Origin: Gammaproteobacteria bacterium
GTDB taxonomy: Bacteria; Pseudomonadota; Gammaproteobacteria; GCA-002705445; GCA-002716945
NCBI GenBank assembly: GCA_038142325.1
Contig: JAYQJW010000002.1
Coordinates: 747,328-811,327 of the forward strand
Length of the DNA stretch: 64,000 bases
Direction of reading: 5' to 3'
The position numbers and the translations under genes were made by a program. Under the pieces are notes generated by a model, which was not told the DNA's origin, searched no databases, and saw nothing but the letters and a program-made list of their open reading frames with translations. Positions 17,456 through 27,131 of this stretch are shown piece after piece (position 1 is the stretch's first letter; every line of letters begins with the position of its first letter).

Positions 17456-17896
17456 TTGAAAAGCACTGCTAATTTTTATTCGCTGAACAAAAGTCAAAAT
17501 CTTCATTTGTCTGTTTGTTTCCTTGCAAGAAAATTATATAAGACTGGGCGTAAAATCGTAATTATTGATGTTGACGATAATCTAGAAAAAATAGATAAAC
17601 TACTTTGGACTTTTGAACAAAACAGTTTTTTACCCCATAAAATCTATAAGTCAGATACTTGTTTTGATACACCAATTATTCTCGTATCAGCAACATATCC
17701 TGATAAACAATCTATACTAGATAAATACGACTCAATAATAAATATTTATGAAAAGCCAGTCATTGATAAAATTGATGATAAATCAATATATGAATTTGTT
17801 GAGAATATTGAGAATAGAAAAGAAATTAGTAGAAAAAAATATACTTTATATAAAAATAATAACTTTGTATTAAACCATAAAGAGTTCAATGAATAA
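17456..17896 (+). CDS. holC: DNA polymerase III chi subunit
   Basis: IDKLLWTFEQNSFLPH motif; between pepA and valS. Confidence 0.88.
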   Translation: MKSTANFYSLNKSQNLHLSVCFLARKLYKTGRKIVIIDVDDNLEKIDKLLWTFEQNSFLPHKIYKSDTCFDTPIILVSATYPDKQSILDKYDSIINIYEKPVIDKIDDKSIYEFVENIENRKEISRKKYTLYKNNNFVLNHKEFNE

Positions 17897-20622
17897 ACAA
17901 TATAAACCACAAGAGATAGAACAAGCCATTTATGATGAATGGGAAAAAAATAAATGTTTTTCTCCAAAACAGTCTTCATCTAAATTTTCCATAGTGCTTC
18001 CCCCACCTAATGTGACAGGTACTCTTCACATGGGTCATGCATTTCAACATACAATCATTGATATTCTTGTAAGATATCATCGAATGCTTGGAAAAAGTGT
18101 ATTATGGCAGCCTGGTACTGACCATGCAGGTATAGCTACTCAGCTTGTTGTTGAAAATAGGATTAAAAATACTGGAAGAGATGTTAAAGCTCTCAGCAGA
18201 GAAGAGTTTATTGATGAAGTTTGGGAATGGAAAGAATTATCTGGCAACACAATCATAAATCAAACAAAAAGAATTGGTTCTTCTGCAGATTGGTCAAGAA
18301 ATAGATTCACGATGGATGATGGATTGTCTAAAATCGTGGAAGATGTTTTCATTTCTTTATACGAAGAAAAGCTAATATATAGAGGAAACCGATTAGTAAA
18401 TTGGGATATTAAATTACAGACTGCTGATTCTGATTTAGAAGTTGTTAATAAAGGCCAGGATGGATATTTATACTACCTAAGATATCAATTAAAAGATTCG
18501 AGTGATTCTATTGTAGTAGCTACTACAAGACCAGAGACATTCTTTGGTGATTCTGCAATCTGTATAAATCCTGAGGATACAAGATATAAACATCTTATAG
18601 GTAAAGAAATTGCCCTGCCAATGATCAAAAGATACATACCGGTTATACAAGATGAATTGGTTGATATGGATTTTGGTACTGGATGTCTAAAGATAACTCC
18701 AGCACATGATTTTAATGATTACAAAGTTGGTAAAAAACATAATCTTAATTTTATTAACATCTTGAATAAAGACGGAACATTAAATGAAAATGTTCATGAA
18801 AAATATATAGGTAAAAATATTCATACAGTTCGCGAGGAACTTGTTAATGATTTAGAAAAAGAACAAATATTAGTTAAAAAAGATAAATATCAGAATACTG
18901 TTCCAATAGGTGAGAGAACAGGTGAAATAATTGAACCTTTACTCACAAATCAATGGTTTATGAGCATGAGTTCTCTAGCAGAAAAAGGCGTAAAAGTTGT
19001 TGAAGATAAAAAGGTAAATTTTGTTCCTAAGCATTGGGAAAAAATCTATTTCAATTGGCTTAGAAATATTGAGGATTGGTGTGTAAGTCGACAAATTTTT
19101 TGGGGACATAGAATACCTGCTTGGTATGATGATGATGCTAATATTTACGTCGGTAAGAACGAAAAGGAAATTAGAAATAAATATAAATTAGCTGATAATA
19201 TAAACTTAACACAAGATTCTGATGTTCTTGATACATGGTTTTCATCTTCACTCTGGCCCTTTTCAACACTAGGATGGAAAGATGATGATAGTGTGTTTGA
19301 AAAATATTTTCCTACAAACCTTTTAGTAACAGGTTTTGATATCATTTTCTTTTGGGTTGCAAGAATGATAATGATGAGCATAAAGTTTACGGATAATATT
19401 CCATTTAATAAGGTTTATATTCATGGATTAGTCAGAGATTCAGAAGGTAAAAAAATGTCTAAATCAATTGGTAATGTAATAGATCCCTTAGATGTGATTG
19501 ATGGTATTTCTCTTGATAAACTTCTTGAAAAAAGGACAGCTAGTTTACTCAATGAAAAGCAAAAAGCAGATGTAATAAAAAAAACTAAAAGAGATTTTCC
19601 CTCTGGAATAAGGGAATATGGTGCTGATGCATTGAGATTTAATTTTTGCGCTATGGCTTCTACTGGTAGGGATATAAACTTCGATTTAAATAGAATAGAA
19701 GGGTACAGGAATTTTTGTAATAAAATTTGGAATGCTTCAAGATATATTCTCATGTCTTGTGAAGGTTTTAATTACCAAGAAAAAATTAATCCCAACGACT
19801 CTAGTATCTTTGATAAATGGATTTTATACAGCCTAGATAATGTTGTGAGTGACTTTAAAAAATATACAACAACTTATAGATTTGATTTAATGGCTAATGG
19901 TATCTACGATTTTGTTTGGAATGAATATTGTGACTGGTATCTTGAAATTTCTAAACATAATATGAATGATGTAACAAAAAATCATCTTATTTTTTCAATA
20001 TTAAGAATTATAAAATTATGTCATCCAATTATACCTTTTATAACAGAAAGTATTTGGAAAGAGTTTTATAAATGTAAATTTGTATCTGAGAAAATGCTCA
20101 TTAATAGTAGCTTTCCATCTCAAATAAGAATTTCTAAAGAAGATGATGTTGAGGCTAGAGTAAATCGTATCAAGAGAAATAATAAAAAAAATTAGAAAAA
20201 CAAGAACAGAGTTAGGTATACATCCTAAACAAATCATTAGTATAAATGTACATATTAAAAAATCAGAAATAAAAAATGATGTTACAGAACATCAAAGCCT
20301 AATTGAGTCGATGACTAATACAAATATTGATATCACAGCTGAGCAATCAGATGTAAATGAATATATTGATTTAATCGATGATAACTATACTCTATATTTA
20401 AAAATTAGAAATTTAATTAATGTTCAGGAAGAAATGAAGAGAATAGATAAAAAGCTAATAGAGCTCGAAGCAATCGTTACAAAGATAAATTCTAAGCTGA
20501 ATAATAAGAGTTTTATAGAAAAAGCTCCAAGTGAAATAATAAATCAGAATATTTCTAACAAAAGCAAGATTGAGAACGACATATTATCTCTTAATAATCT
20601 TCGTAAAACTTTATCTAATTAA
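17889..20622 (+). CDS. valS: Valine--tRNA ligase; apparent frameshift near 20175
   Basis: PPPNVTGTLHMGHA, KMSKS, DVLDTWFSS; C-terminal coiled coil KLNNKSFIEKAP in the downstream frame. Confidence 0.95.
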
Positions 20623-21579
20623 ACTATATAATCTTTCAAGCGTTAGTCTAAAACTCGTTAAATCATTTGTGATGTTAATATTTAACTGATTCGTTAATTG
20701 CTTATACTCATTGCATTCTGAACCAATAAGAATAATATCCTCTGTCTTATCTGCATTTTCACGAATATGTTTAATTTCATATATCTTTCTGGCAATATCT
20801 CTTGGATTATTTATTGCTAAAACAACTAACTGTGCTCTCACATTTGTCGCCGCATATGTTATCTCATCATGGGGTACTCCATTACCAATATATGTGATAT
20901 CCCAGCCAACATTCTGTGCAACAATCAAATGCATTATTGTGTCTAATGATTCGTGTTCAGAGAGTAAAGATGCCAATACTAGGCGTGGGCAGTCCTCTTT
21001 AGACGATCTTAATTTTAAATACAAATTATTTAAACAAGTTCTTATGCTTAATTTGGACATTTTTTCTTGCGCATATCTAATGCTGCCTCTAGAACATTCG
21101 TCATTAATATAATTGCTCAATGGTTTTATAAACTCAATTAGAAAATCATTAGTGTTTAAAATGGCAACTGCATTAGATAATACATTATCTAATTTCCAGC
21201 TATTCATTTCTTTTATACATGAAATTGATTCATCAAATAATTCCATTACAGTACCTGTGCTAGGCCTTTTGTAACCAACAGAGAAATTAGATTCATCACC
21301 CATTACTAATTCAAACAAATCATCGTATGATAAAGATGCAATATCTCCAATGCGCCTTCCTGCAGCAATTGCTCTTTTAAGTAATGTTAGCTTGTCGATA
21401 TCTTTATCTGAGTATAACCTTCTGTTTGTATCATTACGTTGTGATACCACAGCTTGGTATCTCTTCTCCCACACTCTAATTACATCAGAACTTAAACCCG
21501 TTCTTCGATTGACAACTTGTATGAGATGTCTAGGTTTTGCAGATAAATCTTCTTTCATTTGTGAAATATTCAGGGACAT
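20611..21579 (-). CDS. MerR-family regulator with cobalamin-binding-type domain (CarH/LitR-like); start uncertain (21558, 21579 or GTG 21747)
   Basis: MerR HTH IQVVNRRTGLSSDVIRVWEKRY..R...NRRLYS; helical bundle then Rossmann-type segment SEHESL..GWDITYIGNGVP. Confidence 0.8.
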   Translation of the reverse strand: MSLNISQMKEDLSAKPRHLIQVVNRRTGLSSDVIRVWEKRYQAVVSQRNDTNRRLYSDKDIDKLTLLKRAIAAGRRIGDIASLSYDDLFELVMGDESNFSVGYKRPSTGTVMELFDESISCIKEMNSWKLDNVLSNAVAILNTNDFLIEFIKPLSNYINDECSRGSIRYAQEKMSKLSIRTCLNNLYLKLRSSKEDCPRLVLASLLSEHESLDTIMHLIVAQNVGWDITYIGNGVPHDEITYAATNVRAQLVVLAINNPRDIARKIYEIKHIRENADKTEDIILIGSECNEYKQLTNQLNINITNDLTSFRLTLERLYSLIR

Positions 21580-21595
21580 TCCCTTGTTGTTGTTA

Positions 21596-21635
21596 ATTAT
21601 TGCTTTATCCATAGCTTTTGTCAATCCTTTGTCTA
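21596..21635 (-). promoter_or_regulatory. Putative sigma70 promoter of the MerR gene with overlapping 11-bp-spaced repeats
   Basis: Minus strand TTGACA (21619-21624), 17 nt, AATAAT (21596-21601); TAGACA (21630-21635) exactly 11 bp upstream of the -35. Confidence 0.55.
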
Positions 21636-21695
21636 TTATTAGACGAACAGTATCACTATTTAATCTGTTTGTATATATTTTGTTCATTTTTTTTA

Positions 21696-21724
21696 TTGAC
21701 ATGTCTATATTATTCAGATATTGT
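21696..21724 (+). promoter_or_regulatory. Putative sigma70 promoter driving a divergent small transcript
   Basis: TTGACA 21696-21701, 17-nt spacer, TATTGT 21719-21724; T-rich tract upstream. Confidence 0.6.
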
Positions 21725-21729
21725 CTTAG

Positions 21730-21803
21730 ACAGGATGTAGACAACACGTCATATCCCCACCCCTTTAATGAAAGGCCGAATTTACCCCCTTCGGCCTTTT
21801 TTT
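21730..21803 (+). ncRNA. Candidate small regulatory RNA (~73 nt)
   Basis: Bounded by the promoter above and an intrinsic terminator; 5' hairpin GAUGU/ACGUC, single-stranded CCCCACCCC, no protein ORF. Confidence 0.5.
21771..21803 (+). terminator. Intrinsic terminator; strong on + strand, weaker on - strand after dinB
   Basis: AAAGGCCGAA-tttaccccc-TTCGGCC-TTTTTTT; only three U follow the stem on the minus strand. Confidence 0.85.
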
Positions 21804-23016
21804 ATACTGATTTTCTGTAGCCGTTAGGACGCCAAGCGGGCGCAATAACATCAGTGCTCTCATAAAGGTCAAGTTTTAAACGTGCTAACTCAATAGTATC
21901 TTTACCAAATTTTTTATTAATATTGTCTACAACTCTTAAACATTTGTTTTGATTAGTTGCTCTGTCAAAAAAATCACCTTGTATGTTTTTTTGAACAGGA
22001 CGTATTGTCGTTACCTGGACTTGATAAATGCCCACATTTTTATCAAGCATGTTTAAAACATGCTCGCACAATTGAAAGATTTTTCGCTGATCAGATGTAG
22101 CATATTCGAGTTTAATCTTTTTTTGAATCCAGCCAGCTTTTATTTTTATACCAATCATAAATTTTTTTGATTCATGATTACATTCTCTTAATCGCTTGGA
22201 TAGTTTTACAGATATTTTTAAAAATATTTTTTTTATCAGATTTCTATCCTTTGTATTTGGCATTACAACTTTTCCATGACCTAGGCTTTTTGGATACATT
22301 GGATCTAATGTAAGTCCTTCAAAGTCTTCTCCATTTGCCATCAACCATATCTTTTTTCCAATATTTCCAAATCTATTCGAAAGTATACTAATAGGTATTT
22401 TCTTCATATCGGAACATTTATACACTCCATGTTCATTGAGAAATCTCGTTATACCCTTGGATACGCCGCATAGTTTGTCAACATCTGCATTGCTTAAATA
22501 TTGATCACGATTATTTTTATTAATAAAAGTAATACCATCAGGTTTGTTAACTTTGGAGGCAAATTTAGCTAATGATTTGCTATATGAAACTCCTATTGAG
22601 CATTTAAGATTTTCAGACGAATATATCAAGTCCTTAACATGATAGATGATTGTATCTATATTTTTATATATTCTCATACAGTTTGTTAATTCTAAAAAAG
22701 CCTCGTCTACAGAATAAACCTGAATATCAGGAGTGACATTTTTCAAGATATTCATGATGTTAGTAGATACAGCAGTATATATATTTGGTCTTGATGGTCG
22801 CTGAATTAAATAGGGACAGATTCTTTTTGCTTCATAAAGCCTCATGCCTGTTTTTACCCCAAAGGCTCTTGCTTCGTAAGATGAAGTGATAACGCATGAT
22901 CCTTTTATTCCATTAGTTACTGCTATAGGTTTTCCTGCTAGTTCTGGAAAATCTCTCTGTTCTATGGATGCAAAAAAAGCATTCATATCAACATGAAGAT
23001 ATATTTTTGGATTCAT
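21802..23016 (-). CDS. dinB: Y-family DNA polymerase IV
   Basis: LHVDMNAFFASIEQ, SYEARAFGVKTGM, YSVDEAFL, AKFASKVNKPDG. Confidence 0.9.
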   Translation of the reverse strand: MNPKIYLHVDMNAFFASIEQRDFPELAGKPIAVTNGIKGSCVITSSYEARAFGVKTGMRLYEAKRICPYLIQRPSRPNIYTAVSTNIMNILKNVTPDIQVYSVDEAFLELTNCMRIYKNIDTIIYHVKDLIYSSENLKCSIGVSYSKSLAKFASKVNKPDGITFINKNNRDQYLSNADVDKLCGVSKGITRFLNEHGVYKCSDMKKIPISILSNRFGNIGKKIWLMANGEDFEGLTLDPMYPKSLGHGKVVMPNTKDRNLIKKIFLKISVKLSKRLRECNHESKKFMIGIKIKAGWIQKKIKLEYATSDQRKIFQLCEHVLNMLDKNVGIYQVQVTTIRPVQKNIQGDFFDRATNQNKCLRVVDNINKKFGKDTIELARLKLDLYESTDVIAPAWRPNGYRKSV

Positions 23017-23018
23017 GG

Positions 23019-23618
23019 CTAGTAAATTCTTACTTGCCCAATTACATGACCTTGTATTGAAATTCTTTCAACAGGATAAATTATTTCTTTAAATTTATTA
23101 TTAGCAGGAATGAGCTTTATTTCATCAGAATTAATTTTTTCTATATATTTTAATGTTACATCTTGATTGTCGATTAAGACGACATGAACCTTTGACTTAT
23201 GCGTCTTATTACTTTCTTCAATTATTACCCAATCTCCATCATTAATACCAGCGTCAATCATAGAATCACCTTTAACTTTTAAAGCATATGATTTTTTATT
23301 AGTAAATAAGTACTCGAGCTCAATCTTTTGTTGATCTGTTATTGCTTCTATTGCCCCACCGGCAGCAATTTTTCCTAAAGATTTTAAAAAAATAGGTTCT
23401 TTTTGATGCAGGAGTATCCCTCTATGTTTGTTAGGAATTTTTTTTAACTTGTTGGCCTTCTCAAGAGCTTTTACATATCGATGAGCAACACCCTTTGACT
23501 TGATACCTATTCCTTTTGCAATATCTGTTAATAGAGGATATCTCCCGTATTTTTTAGAATACTTAAGTATAAATTCATAAGCCTTTTGTTCTTTTTCAGT
23601 TAGTACCTGGTAATTCAT
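23019..23618 (-). CDS. lexA: SOS repressor LexA
   Basis: N-terminal winged HTH, IAAG cleavage site, VKGDSMID catalytic Ser, TLK catalytic Lys. Confidence 0.9.
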   Translation of the reverse strand: MNYQVLTEKEQKAYEFILKYSKKYGRYPLLTDIAKGIGIKSKGVAHRYVKALEKANKLKKIPNKHRGILLHQKEPIFLKSLGKIAAGGAIEAITDQQKIELEYLFTNKKSYALKVKGDSMIDAGINDGDWVIIEESNKTHKSKVHVVLIDNQDVTLKYIEKINSDEIKLIPANNKFKEIIYPVERISIQGHVIGQVRIY

Positions 23619-24087: not shown

Positions 24088-25632
24088 TCACTCCCACTCA
24101 ATCGTACCTGGTGGTTTTGAAGTAATGTCATAAACAACTCTAGCTACACCCTCAACTTCGTTAATAATACGAGTTGATATCATGTTCAAAATATTATGTG
24201 GGATAATACTGGCAGTTGCTGTCATAAAATCTGTTGTATTAACAGCTCTGAGAGCGATTACAAATCCATATTGTCTCTTATCACCTACTACTCCAACTGA
24301 TTTTAATGGTATTAATACTGAGAGAGCTTGATCAACTTTATTATATAAATTGTTAGAGCGAAGTTCTTCAATAAATATATAATCTACTTCTTGTAATATT
24401 TTTATTTTTATATGGTTTACCTCACCAAGTATTCTGACAGCAAGTCCAGGGCCAGGAAATGGATGTCTTTCAATAAGCTTACTAGGCAAACCTAACTGTT
24501 TACCAATTTTCCTAACTTCATCTTTAAAAAGATTTCGAATTGGCTCAACTAAATTAAATTTCATATTTTTTGGAAGTCCTCCAACATTATGATGAGACTT
24601 GATAACATCAGATTTAGATTTTTTTGATGACGACTCAATAACATCTGGATAAATGGTGCCCTGTCCTAGATACTTTACATTTTTGATTTTCTTCGCTTCT
24701 CTATCAAATATTTCTATAAAGCATTTACCGATAATTTTTCGTTTTTTTTTCAGGATCATTTACTCCTCTGAGAGATAAGAGAAATTTTCTTGAAGCATCT
24801 ACCACTTTTAGGTTAATGTTAAGTGCTCTCGTAATATTAATAACCTCTTCAACTTCATTTTTTCTAAGTAGTCCAGTATTAATAAAGATACAAATTAGAT
24901 TTTTGCCAATTGCAGTGTTTAGAATTGCAGCAACCACTGAAGAATCTACACCGCCAGATAATGCTAGGATAACTTTTTCTTCTCTTACTTCATCTCTTAT
25001 TTTGTTTATCATATCTTGGCTGATGTTTTTTGGTGTCCATGTCTTTCTACACCTACATATCTTTGCAAAGTTTTGTAATATTTTTTTTCCAATTTTCGTA
25101 TGTGTTACTTCAGGATGAAATTGAAGTCCATAAATATGTTTCTGTTCATTCTCTAGTGCGGATATTTTTGAATTACTACTATTACCTAATGAAATGAAAT
25201 TGCTAGGTAATTTCTCTACTTTATCAGCATGACTCATCCATACGTCATGTGTATTGTCTTTATCACAACCATCGAATAATTGTGACTTTTTATTTATATT
25301 GAATGTTGAATGACCAAACTCTTTTTTTAATGATTTAACTACTTTCCCACCAAACTCTCTTGCTATAAGTTGCATTCCATAGCATATACCTAATATTGGA
25401 ATACCAAGTGAAAATATTTTTTTATTTGGTTTCAACATTTTTCTTGTGTTGACAGAGTTTGGGCCACCACTAAAAATAATACCTTTTGGCGCTAATCTAA
25501 TAATTTCTGTTATTGAAATATTGTGTGGTTTGACAAGACTATACACTCCAATCTCTCTAATACGTCGTGCAATCAGTTGAGTGTATTGAGAGCCAAAATC
25601 TAAGATTATGATTAAATCTTTAGATGCTTGCA

Positions 25633-25633
<1 letters not shown>
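24088..25633 (-). CDS. guaA: GMP synthase; apparent frameshift near 24745
   Basis: [52 protein letters not shown]. Confidence 0.95.

Positions 25634-27131
<1,498 letters not shown>

Follow-up and report, generated by a model that had tools for sequence, protein, structure and literature searches.

A conserved candidate small RNA gene divergent from a CarH/LitR-type regulator without B12 signature residues in marine Gammaproteobacteria

The closest described relatives of the system studied here include the CarH/LitR photoreceptor-repressors. In PMC9304148, the CarH operator unit is a tandem 11-bp repeat, 5'-nnnnTnnACAn-3', with one repeat including the -35 box. The same source defines the RxWERRY helix and the Wx9EH and D/ExHx2G/P motifs; the His of the latter motif is the lower axial ligand of B12. 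LitR proteins of classes II–V (Pseudomonas PplR/PmlR and others) are described as B12-independent in PMC9758184, where the P. putida LitR regulon is stated to include lipid-modifying enzymes such as UfaM. Here, we describe a predicted small RNA (sRNA) element that is located next to, and divergent from, a CarH/LitR-like gene in a gammaproteobacterial genome. The element resides in a stretch of 64,000 nucleotides (the window; contig JAYQJW010000002.1 of assembly GCA_038142325.1, forward-strand positions 747,328 to 811,327), to which all plain coordinates refer; it had been noticed earlier from the letters alone (the original prediction). As judged from sequence, the element is a real and strongly selected candidate for a family-specific sRNA gene, apparently wired to a B12-less CarH/LitR-type regulator and to a desaturase.

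The sRNA promoter is located on the + strand at 21696–21724, as originally described. It contains one -35 box (TTGACA, 21696–21701), one 17-nt spacer and one -10 box (TATTGT, 21719–21724), giving 10 of 12 matches in our promoter scan. The scan covered 4 kb and returned 20 promoter-like sites, compared to 23.4 ± 4.0 in shuffled sequences; the match is not significant alone. The predicted sRNA is ~74 nt in length (21730–21803, +), with its 5' end inferred from the -10 box and its 3' end from the U-tract. In the minimum-energy fold, the 5' hairpin (21733–21756, +) is formed by GGAUGU.GAC with GUC.AUAUCC; the consensus fold of 23 loci retains it minus one U-A pair. The 5' arm of this hairpin overlaps the DNA repeats that are described below. 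The hairpin is followed by a C-rich linker, CCACCCCUUUAAUG (21757–21770, +), which is unpaired in both the minimum-energy and the consensus folds and represents candidate seed 1. A 5' hairpin and an unpaired C-rich segment had both been described, and both are present; however, AUAUCC is paired, so the unpaired part is shorter than first thought and comprises CCACCCCUUUAAUG only.

The intrinsic terminator occupies 21771–21803 on the + strand, and its GC-rich stem, C5 loop and U7 tail agree with the earlier description. The stem is 10 bp in length and is formed by AAAGGCCGAA (21771–21780) with TTCGGCCTTT (21790–21799). The 9-nt loop UUUACCCCC (21781–21789; TTTACCCCC) represents candidate seed 2, and the T-run is located at 21797–21803. 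The consensus terminator scanner skipped this terminator only for its 9-nt loop, the limit being 8 nt. Folded as a 77-nt RNA, the element reaches -24.6 kcal/mol (z = -6.5), and none of 200 shuffled sequences was as good. As the original prediction had noted, there is no nearby + strand gene to account for the terminator: the C-terminal piece of valS ends at 20622, and dinB and the MerR-type gene, which lie on either side of the element, are both on the − strand. Scanning of the whole window with Rfam 15 identified two tRNAs only and no family for the sRNA element. In one permissive Rfam scan of 21400–22000, the best match was 18.8 bits, versus a threshold of 77 bits. C-rich sRNAs and CarH-type operators are kinds of parts that are already known; judging from the Rfam and literature searches, neither their combination nor this RNA family has been described before.

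Orthologues of the MerR-type gene are present in 22 of 24 other genomes of the family, and the sRNA element was found in all 23 loci that were fetched. These 23 loci, from six genera, were used for the alignment. Comparing our locus with the five other genera, the nucleotide identity of the sRNA is 79–85%, whereas that of the regulator coding sequence, the flank beyond the terminator (the 3' end of dinB or another convergent gene) and the remaining intergenic region is 65–70%, 52–60% and 45–51%, respectively; no other region of the locus is conserved as well as the sRNA. The TTGACA -35 box, the TAnTGT -10 box and the linker core CCACCC with the following TT are invariant in all loci; the fourth C of the linker run and the next TA are conserved in at least 90% of them. 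The C-run of the loop and the T-run of 7–9 are conserved in 23 of 23 loci, and the stems are also invariant in the alignment. Within the 5' hairpin, one pair alternates (GC 11, AU 5, GU 4 and UU 3 loci) and the other pairs are almost invariant. Within the terminator stem, L021 carries one compensatory change (GGTCGA with TCGACC), and two loci have U-G at the same pair. An alignment of relatives had been suggested as a check on the original prediction; it shows that the promoter and the C-rich core are conserved, not the hairpin alone.

Covariance model R1 of the element scores 99 bits and has a single match in its own genome. Within the order, 34 of 37 genomes yielded one copy each; among the high-quality genomes, 16 of 17 did so. 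All six genera possess the sRNA. We also searched 80 loci centred on LitR-like genes of other lineages. The model matched only seven of these, all members of this family, and there was no match at E <= 0.01 beside the 73 LitR-like genes of other lineages. One metagenome pattern scan yielded 80 readable loci, 32 with true matches and 48 with chance matches. The regulator is divergent in all 24 true matches with at least 263 nt of promoter-side flank; the other eight end at the contig edge. dinB adjoins the element in 17 of the 23 aligned loci, five have other genes and one is cut at the contig end. In the five loci without dinB, the neighbours belong to three other gene kinds and are always convergent, and both the element and its A/T-run are retained. 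Since the element is kept where dinB is replaced, and always together with the regulator, it travels with the regulator and not with dinB; since the replacement neighbours are always convergent, no co-directional gene follows the terminator. The predicted stand-alone + strand RNA unit is thus strongly conserved, always divergent from the regulator and outside Rfam, in support of the original prediction.

The divergent gene (20611–21558, −) encodes a CarH/LitR-family MerR-type regulator of 315 residues, without the B12 signature residues. Because the orthologues in all genera begin at MK(E/G)DLS, the start codon is most likely the ATG at 21558, and the GTG at 21747 given in the list of open reading frames (ORFs) is most likely an over-extension. 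Pfam identified MerR_1 only (E 1.5e-11), with the Pfam B12 domains not reaching E = 10. The top NCBIfam model is CarH, at 65 bits, under the 400-bit cut-off. The best PDB sequence matches are T. thermophilus LitR/CarH; homologues that align over at least 94% of the length (33–38% identity) contain both B12-binding domains of Pfam, PF02607 and PF02310, and one orthologue at 66% identity is named light-induced transcriptional regulator in one source. The AlphaFold model has a predicted local distance difference test (pLDDT) value of 87.3 and contains both the four-helix bundle and the Rossmann-type fold. Its top 10 Foldseek PDB matches are all T. thermophilus CarH (E 4e-13 to 6e-12), and the best of them is full-length CarH, 5C8E/5C8D (E 4e-13). 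Compared to the solved CarH/LitR cobalamin-binding domains, the C-terminal part gives target-normalised TM values of 0.67–0.83, most with root-mean-square deviations of 3.0–3.9 Å. Both fold and full-length homology thus support the CarH/LitR-like assignment that had been made from the letters.

The recognition helix of the regulator reads RVWEKRY, in agreement with RxWERRY; its R, W, E, R and Y residues are invariant in 22 sequences. The Wx9EH motif is absent: different from the B12-type homologues, which have W...EH, Cys fills the W column and EK or ER replaces EH in the regulator and throughout its family. The D/ExHx2G/P motif, which those homologues also possess, is absent as well; the His column is occupied by E and the G column by D (E-H/Y/F-E-S/N-L-D). 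Next to the ligand column, the window protein has a His in place of which other genera have Y or F. Most likely, the regulator is a CarH-fold LitR-family protein that does not bind adenosylcobalamin.

Two tandem 11-bp repeats, GTCTTAGACAG and GATGTAGACAA, are located at 21723–21744 (+), over the predicted start of the sRNA. Both fit the CarH unit, and together they form a putative regulator site. The regulator promoter region (21596–21639, −) contains a -35 box TTGACA (21624–21619) and a -10 box AATAAT (21601–21596); with 11 of 12 matches, it is the best of the 4-kb scan. It also contains two tandem repeats, ATAATAGACAA and AGGATTGACAA (21639–21618, −), the second of which holds the -35 box. 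A regulator -35 box inside one repeat is the arrangement described for CarH in PMC9304148. Two more tandem TnnACA repeats, AAAATGAACAA and AATATATACAA (21669–21690, −), are located between the two promoters; we infer their role. Members of the genus share their 11-nt ACA spacing, which other genera retain only in part.

The genome encodes two desaturase paralogues, A and B, and has no fabA match. Ahead of desaturase A (contig C7:52131), the sequence TTGACA-N17-TATTGT-N4-GACAG-N6-GACA is found, as at the sRNA. The pattern TAnTGT-N3-8-GACA-N7-GACA occurs exactly twice in the 1.1-Mb genome, at the sRNA and at desaturase A, both times behind TTGACA-N17. Two of the three genomic TTGACA-N16-18-TAnTGT sites are the sRNA and desaturase-A promoters. 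Similarly, GACAAA-N5-GACAAA occurs four times, once at the regulator -35 box and once in the leader of desaturase A. Genera g1, g2 and g6 retain this design upstream of desaturase A, in 17 loci altogether: 12 satisfy a strict pattern, four carry TACA within the first repeat and one deviates in its -35 box. The design is absent from all 14 upstream regions of paralogue B (13 loci). The bare two-repeat pattern has 52 genomic matches, nine of them non-coding; the full promoter design was recovered only at desaturase A, the crude coding mask of this search having hidden the sRNA locus itself. At desaturase A the design is oriented into the gene, which fixes the direction of sRNA transcription as +.

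In the nearest outgroup (35–39% identity), the regulator is divergent from an orthologous fatty-acid desaturase, and the intergenic region contains the repeats GACAAA, GACA and AACAAA. Since the repeats cover the start site or the -35 box and the spacer is 17 nt, repression rather than MerR-style activation may be expected at the repeat-bearing promoters. The CarH-type repeats that the sRNA promoter shares with the desaturase gene fit the original proposal that the divergent, putatively regulated unit is an sRNA.

Two side observations on desaturases were made. Five outgroup loci (L068, L069, L073, L074 and L122) combine one LitR-like gene lacking the B12 signature with a divergent desaturase and a downstream fabA; fabA is also present in L072 and L084. 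This suggests that unsaturated-lipid genes are what this LitR branch primarily regulates. Ahead of desaturase paralogue B lies a leader of ~110 nt (C2:389385–389484), which forms hairpins (-31 kcal/mol in our genome) after a TTGACA/TAATAT promoter. This leader is conserved across genera (L141 and 12 other loci) and has no Rfam match, the best being 18 bits; it may be a cis-regulatory RNA.

Concerning the mode of action, no match to hfq (PF17209) was found in the 98.5%-complete genome, the control search being positive in 5 of 14 control genomes, including E. coli; the ProQ gene was not found in the genome either. The most likely mechanism is pairing of the C-rich segments with Shine-Dalgarno (SD) sequences. 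Of 396 crudely collected starts that carry an SD-like motif, GGGG is present in 30 and GGGGG in six; ~5 genuine ribosome-binding sites genome-wide contain a G5 run. The 9-mer complementary to the terminator loop occurs four times in the genome: at the sRNA locus, at the csrA site, at the site of one GST-like gene and in one coding region. At csrA, four or more consecutive G are conserved in 27 of 27 loci; the GST-like gene, which lies two genes after desaturase B, keeps G5 in 23 of 23. Wherever both partners were available in a genome, duplex energies ranged from -10 to -17 kcal/mol. No target is statistically outstanding, and csrA and the GST-like gene are leads only. Pairing of the sRNA with the leaders of desaturase A, desaturase B and the regulator is unremarkable (-6.5 to -9.3 kcal/mol). 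One 130-residue secreted protein (C7:16152), which gave the best linker match, was rejected; its site is missing in eight of nine orthologous loci.

Regarding csrA itself (C2:583240–583440), the gene is located after lysC and before a tRNA-like sequence, and its ribosome-binding site (GGAGGGGG) is exceptionally rich in G throughout the 27 orthologous loci. We also noticed that the G-rich complement of the linker (21745–21770, −) resembles one conserved internal stretch of the 16S rRNA of this genome (C8:16641–16669), which gives a duplex of -22.4 kcal/mol with the linker. This resemblance is probably a coincidence, because it is weaker in other genera. A 16S rRNA 3'-end motif, sought for comparing the linker with the anti-SD tail, was not found in the assembly.

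Among public RNA runs, 11 contained 5–11% of the sampled words of 21000–22600. Metatranscriptome contigs were obtained from four runs of four studies; three lie on the coding part of the regulator (21367–21595) and one on part of dinB. All three regulator contigs end at 21567–21595, near the start predicted from the 21624–21596 promoter, which is a weak hint of the transcription start of the regulator.

Taking these data together, we consider it fairly probable, though by no means assured, that the element is a stand-alone sRNA gene within a small LitR-like regulon, with Hfq-independent, anti-SD-type action. A regulatory RNA of ~74 nt would be transcribed from the + strand (~21730–21803), from its own sigma-70-type promoter to its intrinsic terminator, and would belong to the small regulon of the divergent CarH/LitR-family regulator. 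The regulator would most likely bind the tandem 11-bp TnnACA repeats at the sRNA start site, at its own -35 box and at the desaturase promoter. Binding would repress the sRNA, the regulator and the desaturase until a signal of some type releases the regulator. The RNA would most likely act without Hfq; its CCACCCCUUUA linker and ACCCCC loop, both unpaired, would pair with the G-rich ribosome-binding sites of a few mRNAs, and less translation would result. One more specific version appears unlikely to us: the principal divergent output of a CarH-fold sensor without the B12 ligands would be a non-coding RNA, whose gene would have been born in place from an ancestral desaturase promoter and leader, and the C5 loop and linker would throttle CsrA and a few genes with G5 sites.

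Several observations weigh against the proposed sRNA regulon and bear on its alternatives. Desaturase A was found in genera g1, g2 and g6 only, whereas the sRNA is present in all six genera. None of the contigs from the four runs covers the sRNA, and no transcript was seen; these libraries were not made for small RNAs, so they are uninformative on its expression. With Wx9EH and the His ligand of the B12 photoreceptors replaced, the light or cofactor (B12) signal of the original prediction is without support and not established. As for targets, G-rich ribosome-binding sites would pair with any C-rich RNA. The cofold gain is -8.3 kcal/mol for csrA, a value of -8 or lower being attained by 7.2% of 250 background gene starts; for the GST-like gene it is only -3.6 kcal/mol. 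The cofold calculation counts the RNA's own structure and cannot model loop-loop contacts. With no target outstanding and neither Hfq nor ProQ found, a functional + strand RNA that does not pair with SD sequences is conceivable but doubtful. Such an RNA could bind or sequester a protein that recognises C-rich single strands, of which no candidate was identified. A Csr-type sponge was rejected, as the single GGA of our genus is AGA or UGA in eight of 23 loci, those of other genera; the CsrB and RsmZ models gave no match in the genome. Alternatively, it could act as cis-antisense to dinB/lexA read-through, which would couple the SOS operon to the LitR-like regulon. Read-through is plausible, given the weak − strand U-tract and the 17 of 23 loci in which dinB runs towards the hairpin, but the element is unchanged in the five loci where dinB is absent.

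Covariation supports the RNA only minimally because the sequence hardly varies. Each alignment has one pair with compensatory change, and the score of the metagenome set was matched by 16 of 500 shuffles. Part of the conservation may also be explained otherwise: the 5' 15 nt overlap the DNA operator, and the stem is possibly a two-way terminator, since a convergent gene is always present and always abuts the hairpin. These points, together with the desaturase that occupies the same position in the outgroup and the first ~15 nt of the RNA being DNA repeats common to the desaturase-A promoter, would suit a relic promoter. The desaturase would have moved off, leaving its promoter and operator to run into the terminator of the convergent gene; the operator would be kept as a regulator site, for instance for autoregulation or titration, the hairpin as a two-way terminator, and the transcript would be functionless. 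We regard this as quite unlikely. A terminator needs neither the invariant ACCCCC loop nor the unpaired CCACCCCUUUA linker, yet both are among the best-conserved bases, against neutral intergenic DNA of 45–51% identity. Moreover, the 3' arm of the 5' hairpin (GUC.AUAUC) is outside the DNA repeats yet kept, and the element stays while its convergent neighbour varies between dinB and three others. It is very improbable that the − strand is the functional one, with the hairpin as dinB terminator and the G-rich stretch with ATG as a leader, small ORF or cis-element of the regulator. The − strand indeed reads AAAGGGGUGGGGAUAUG and then an 8-codon frame, and the wobble-pair test gives a mixed picture, with canonical pairs numbering 305 of 315 on the + strand versus 297 of 315 on the − strand, and seven rows of our genus favour the − strand at one wobble position. 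However, the SD-like run plus start codon that had been pointed out there opens this 8-codon frame only, and the frame is not kept in relatives; a 1-nt deletion shifts it in L004 and L007, and the ATG is missing in other genera. The − strand fold is unremarkable (z = -2.65), and the best regulator promoter (21624–21596) lies downstream of the element. The U-tract of 7–9 is on the + strand in all loci, whereas UUU is all that follows the hairpin on the − strand; the A-run that precedes the hairpin would be useless on the − strand, yet it is 7–9 in length in 23 of 23 loci.

The host genome is 1.1 Mb in size with 32% G+C. Its order consists of one family with tiny genomes, and related genomes are recorded as uncultured marine Gammaproteobacteria. 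Beyond the terminator, dinB (21802–23016, −; Y-family polymerase, Pfam IMS E 9e-44) is convergent on the sRNA; it is a neighbour outside the unit and is followed in coordinates by lexA (23019–23618, −). valS (17889–20622) is split into two frames, of 768 and 103 residues, overlapping or adjacent. guaA (ORFs of 302 and 223 residues) and guaB (426 and 101 residues) are likewise split, in the regions 24088–25633 and 25633–27125. These split frames point to frameshifts, from either assembly errors or real pseudogenisation. The genome encodes rhodopsin and photolyase, so light matters to the host organism; this is context and no evidence on the signal of the regulator.

Regulators are scarce in streamlined marine bacteria, whose regulatory RNAs are almost wholly unexplored. 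The present locus offers a well-defined non-Rfam sRNA family with a clear candidate transcription factor and a candidate co-regulated enzyme gene. The operators of the RNA, the regulator and the desaturase are three natural candidate binding sites for biochemistry. Our full-text literature searches turned up no paper in which a CarH/LitR-family protein controls an sRNA. If the proposed regulon is true, the outputs of CarH/LitR proteins would extend from protein operons to riboregulation, and the locus would be one testable example of the wiring of a B12-less CarH fold. If the unlikely, more specific version with its CsrA link were true, a minimal genome would have one transcription factor linking light or oxidative stress to a post-transcriptional cascade.

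Compared to known systems, the locus combines familiar elements in a different manner. Like the CarH/LitR photoreceptor-repressors (T. thermophilus CarH, 5C8D/5C8E; B. megaterium LitR), the regulator has an RxWE(R/K)RY helix-turn-helix, a four-helix bundle and a Rossmann domain, and the locus has tandem 11-bp TnnACA repeats, one with the -35 TTGACA, and the divergent regulator/target layout. Different from them, the W and H of Wx9EH and the His ligand of the B12 motif are replaced, the divergent target is one predicted 74-nt non-coding RNA and not a carotenoid or photolyase operon, and the repeats of the sRNA and desaturase promoters cover the start site, immediately downstream of the -10 box. 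With LitR classes II–V, as they appear in PMC9758184, the regulator shares that B12 binding is unlikely, and UfaM loosely parallels the desaturase; however, class II as given there keeps the helical-bundle domain only, whereas the regulator here keeps the Rossmann-like domain too. No LOV gene was seen adjacent to the regulator in the window.

On the RNA side, the element is akin to S. aureus RNAIII, which has C-rich hairpin loops. It further resembles the C-rich anti-SD sRNAs of Firmicutes (RsaE/RoxS; PMC6158497): it is short, its C-rich motifs are unpaired and one of them sits in the terminator loop, it would be expected to pair with G-rich ribosome-binding sites, and it would most likely be Hfq-independent. 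Unlike RsaE/RoxS and RNAIII, it has a gammaproteobacterial host and another kind of regulator; there is no sequence or Rfam relationship, and the targets are candidates only. CcsR1-4 of Rhodobacter sphaeroides, a bacterium exposed to light, are likewise small RNAs with C-rich loops, and they are linked to light or oxygen stress. They derive by processing from a DUF1127 mRNA, at its 3' end, and depend on alternative sigma factors (PMC8034643), whereas the element described here is a single, apparently stand-alone gene with one sigma-70-type promoter and a putative repressor-type operator.

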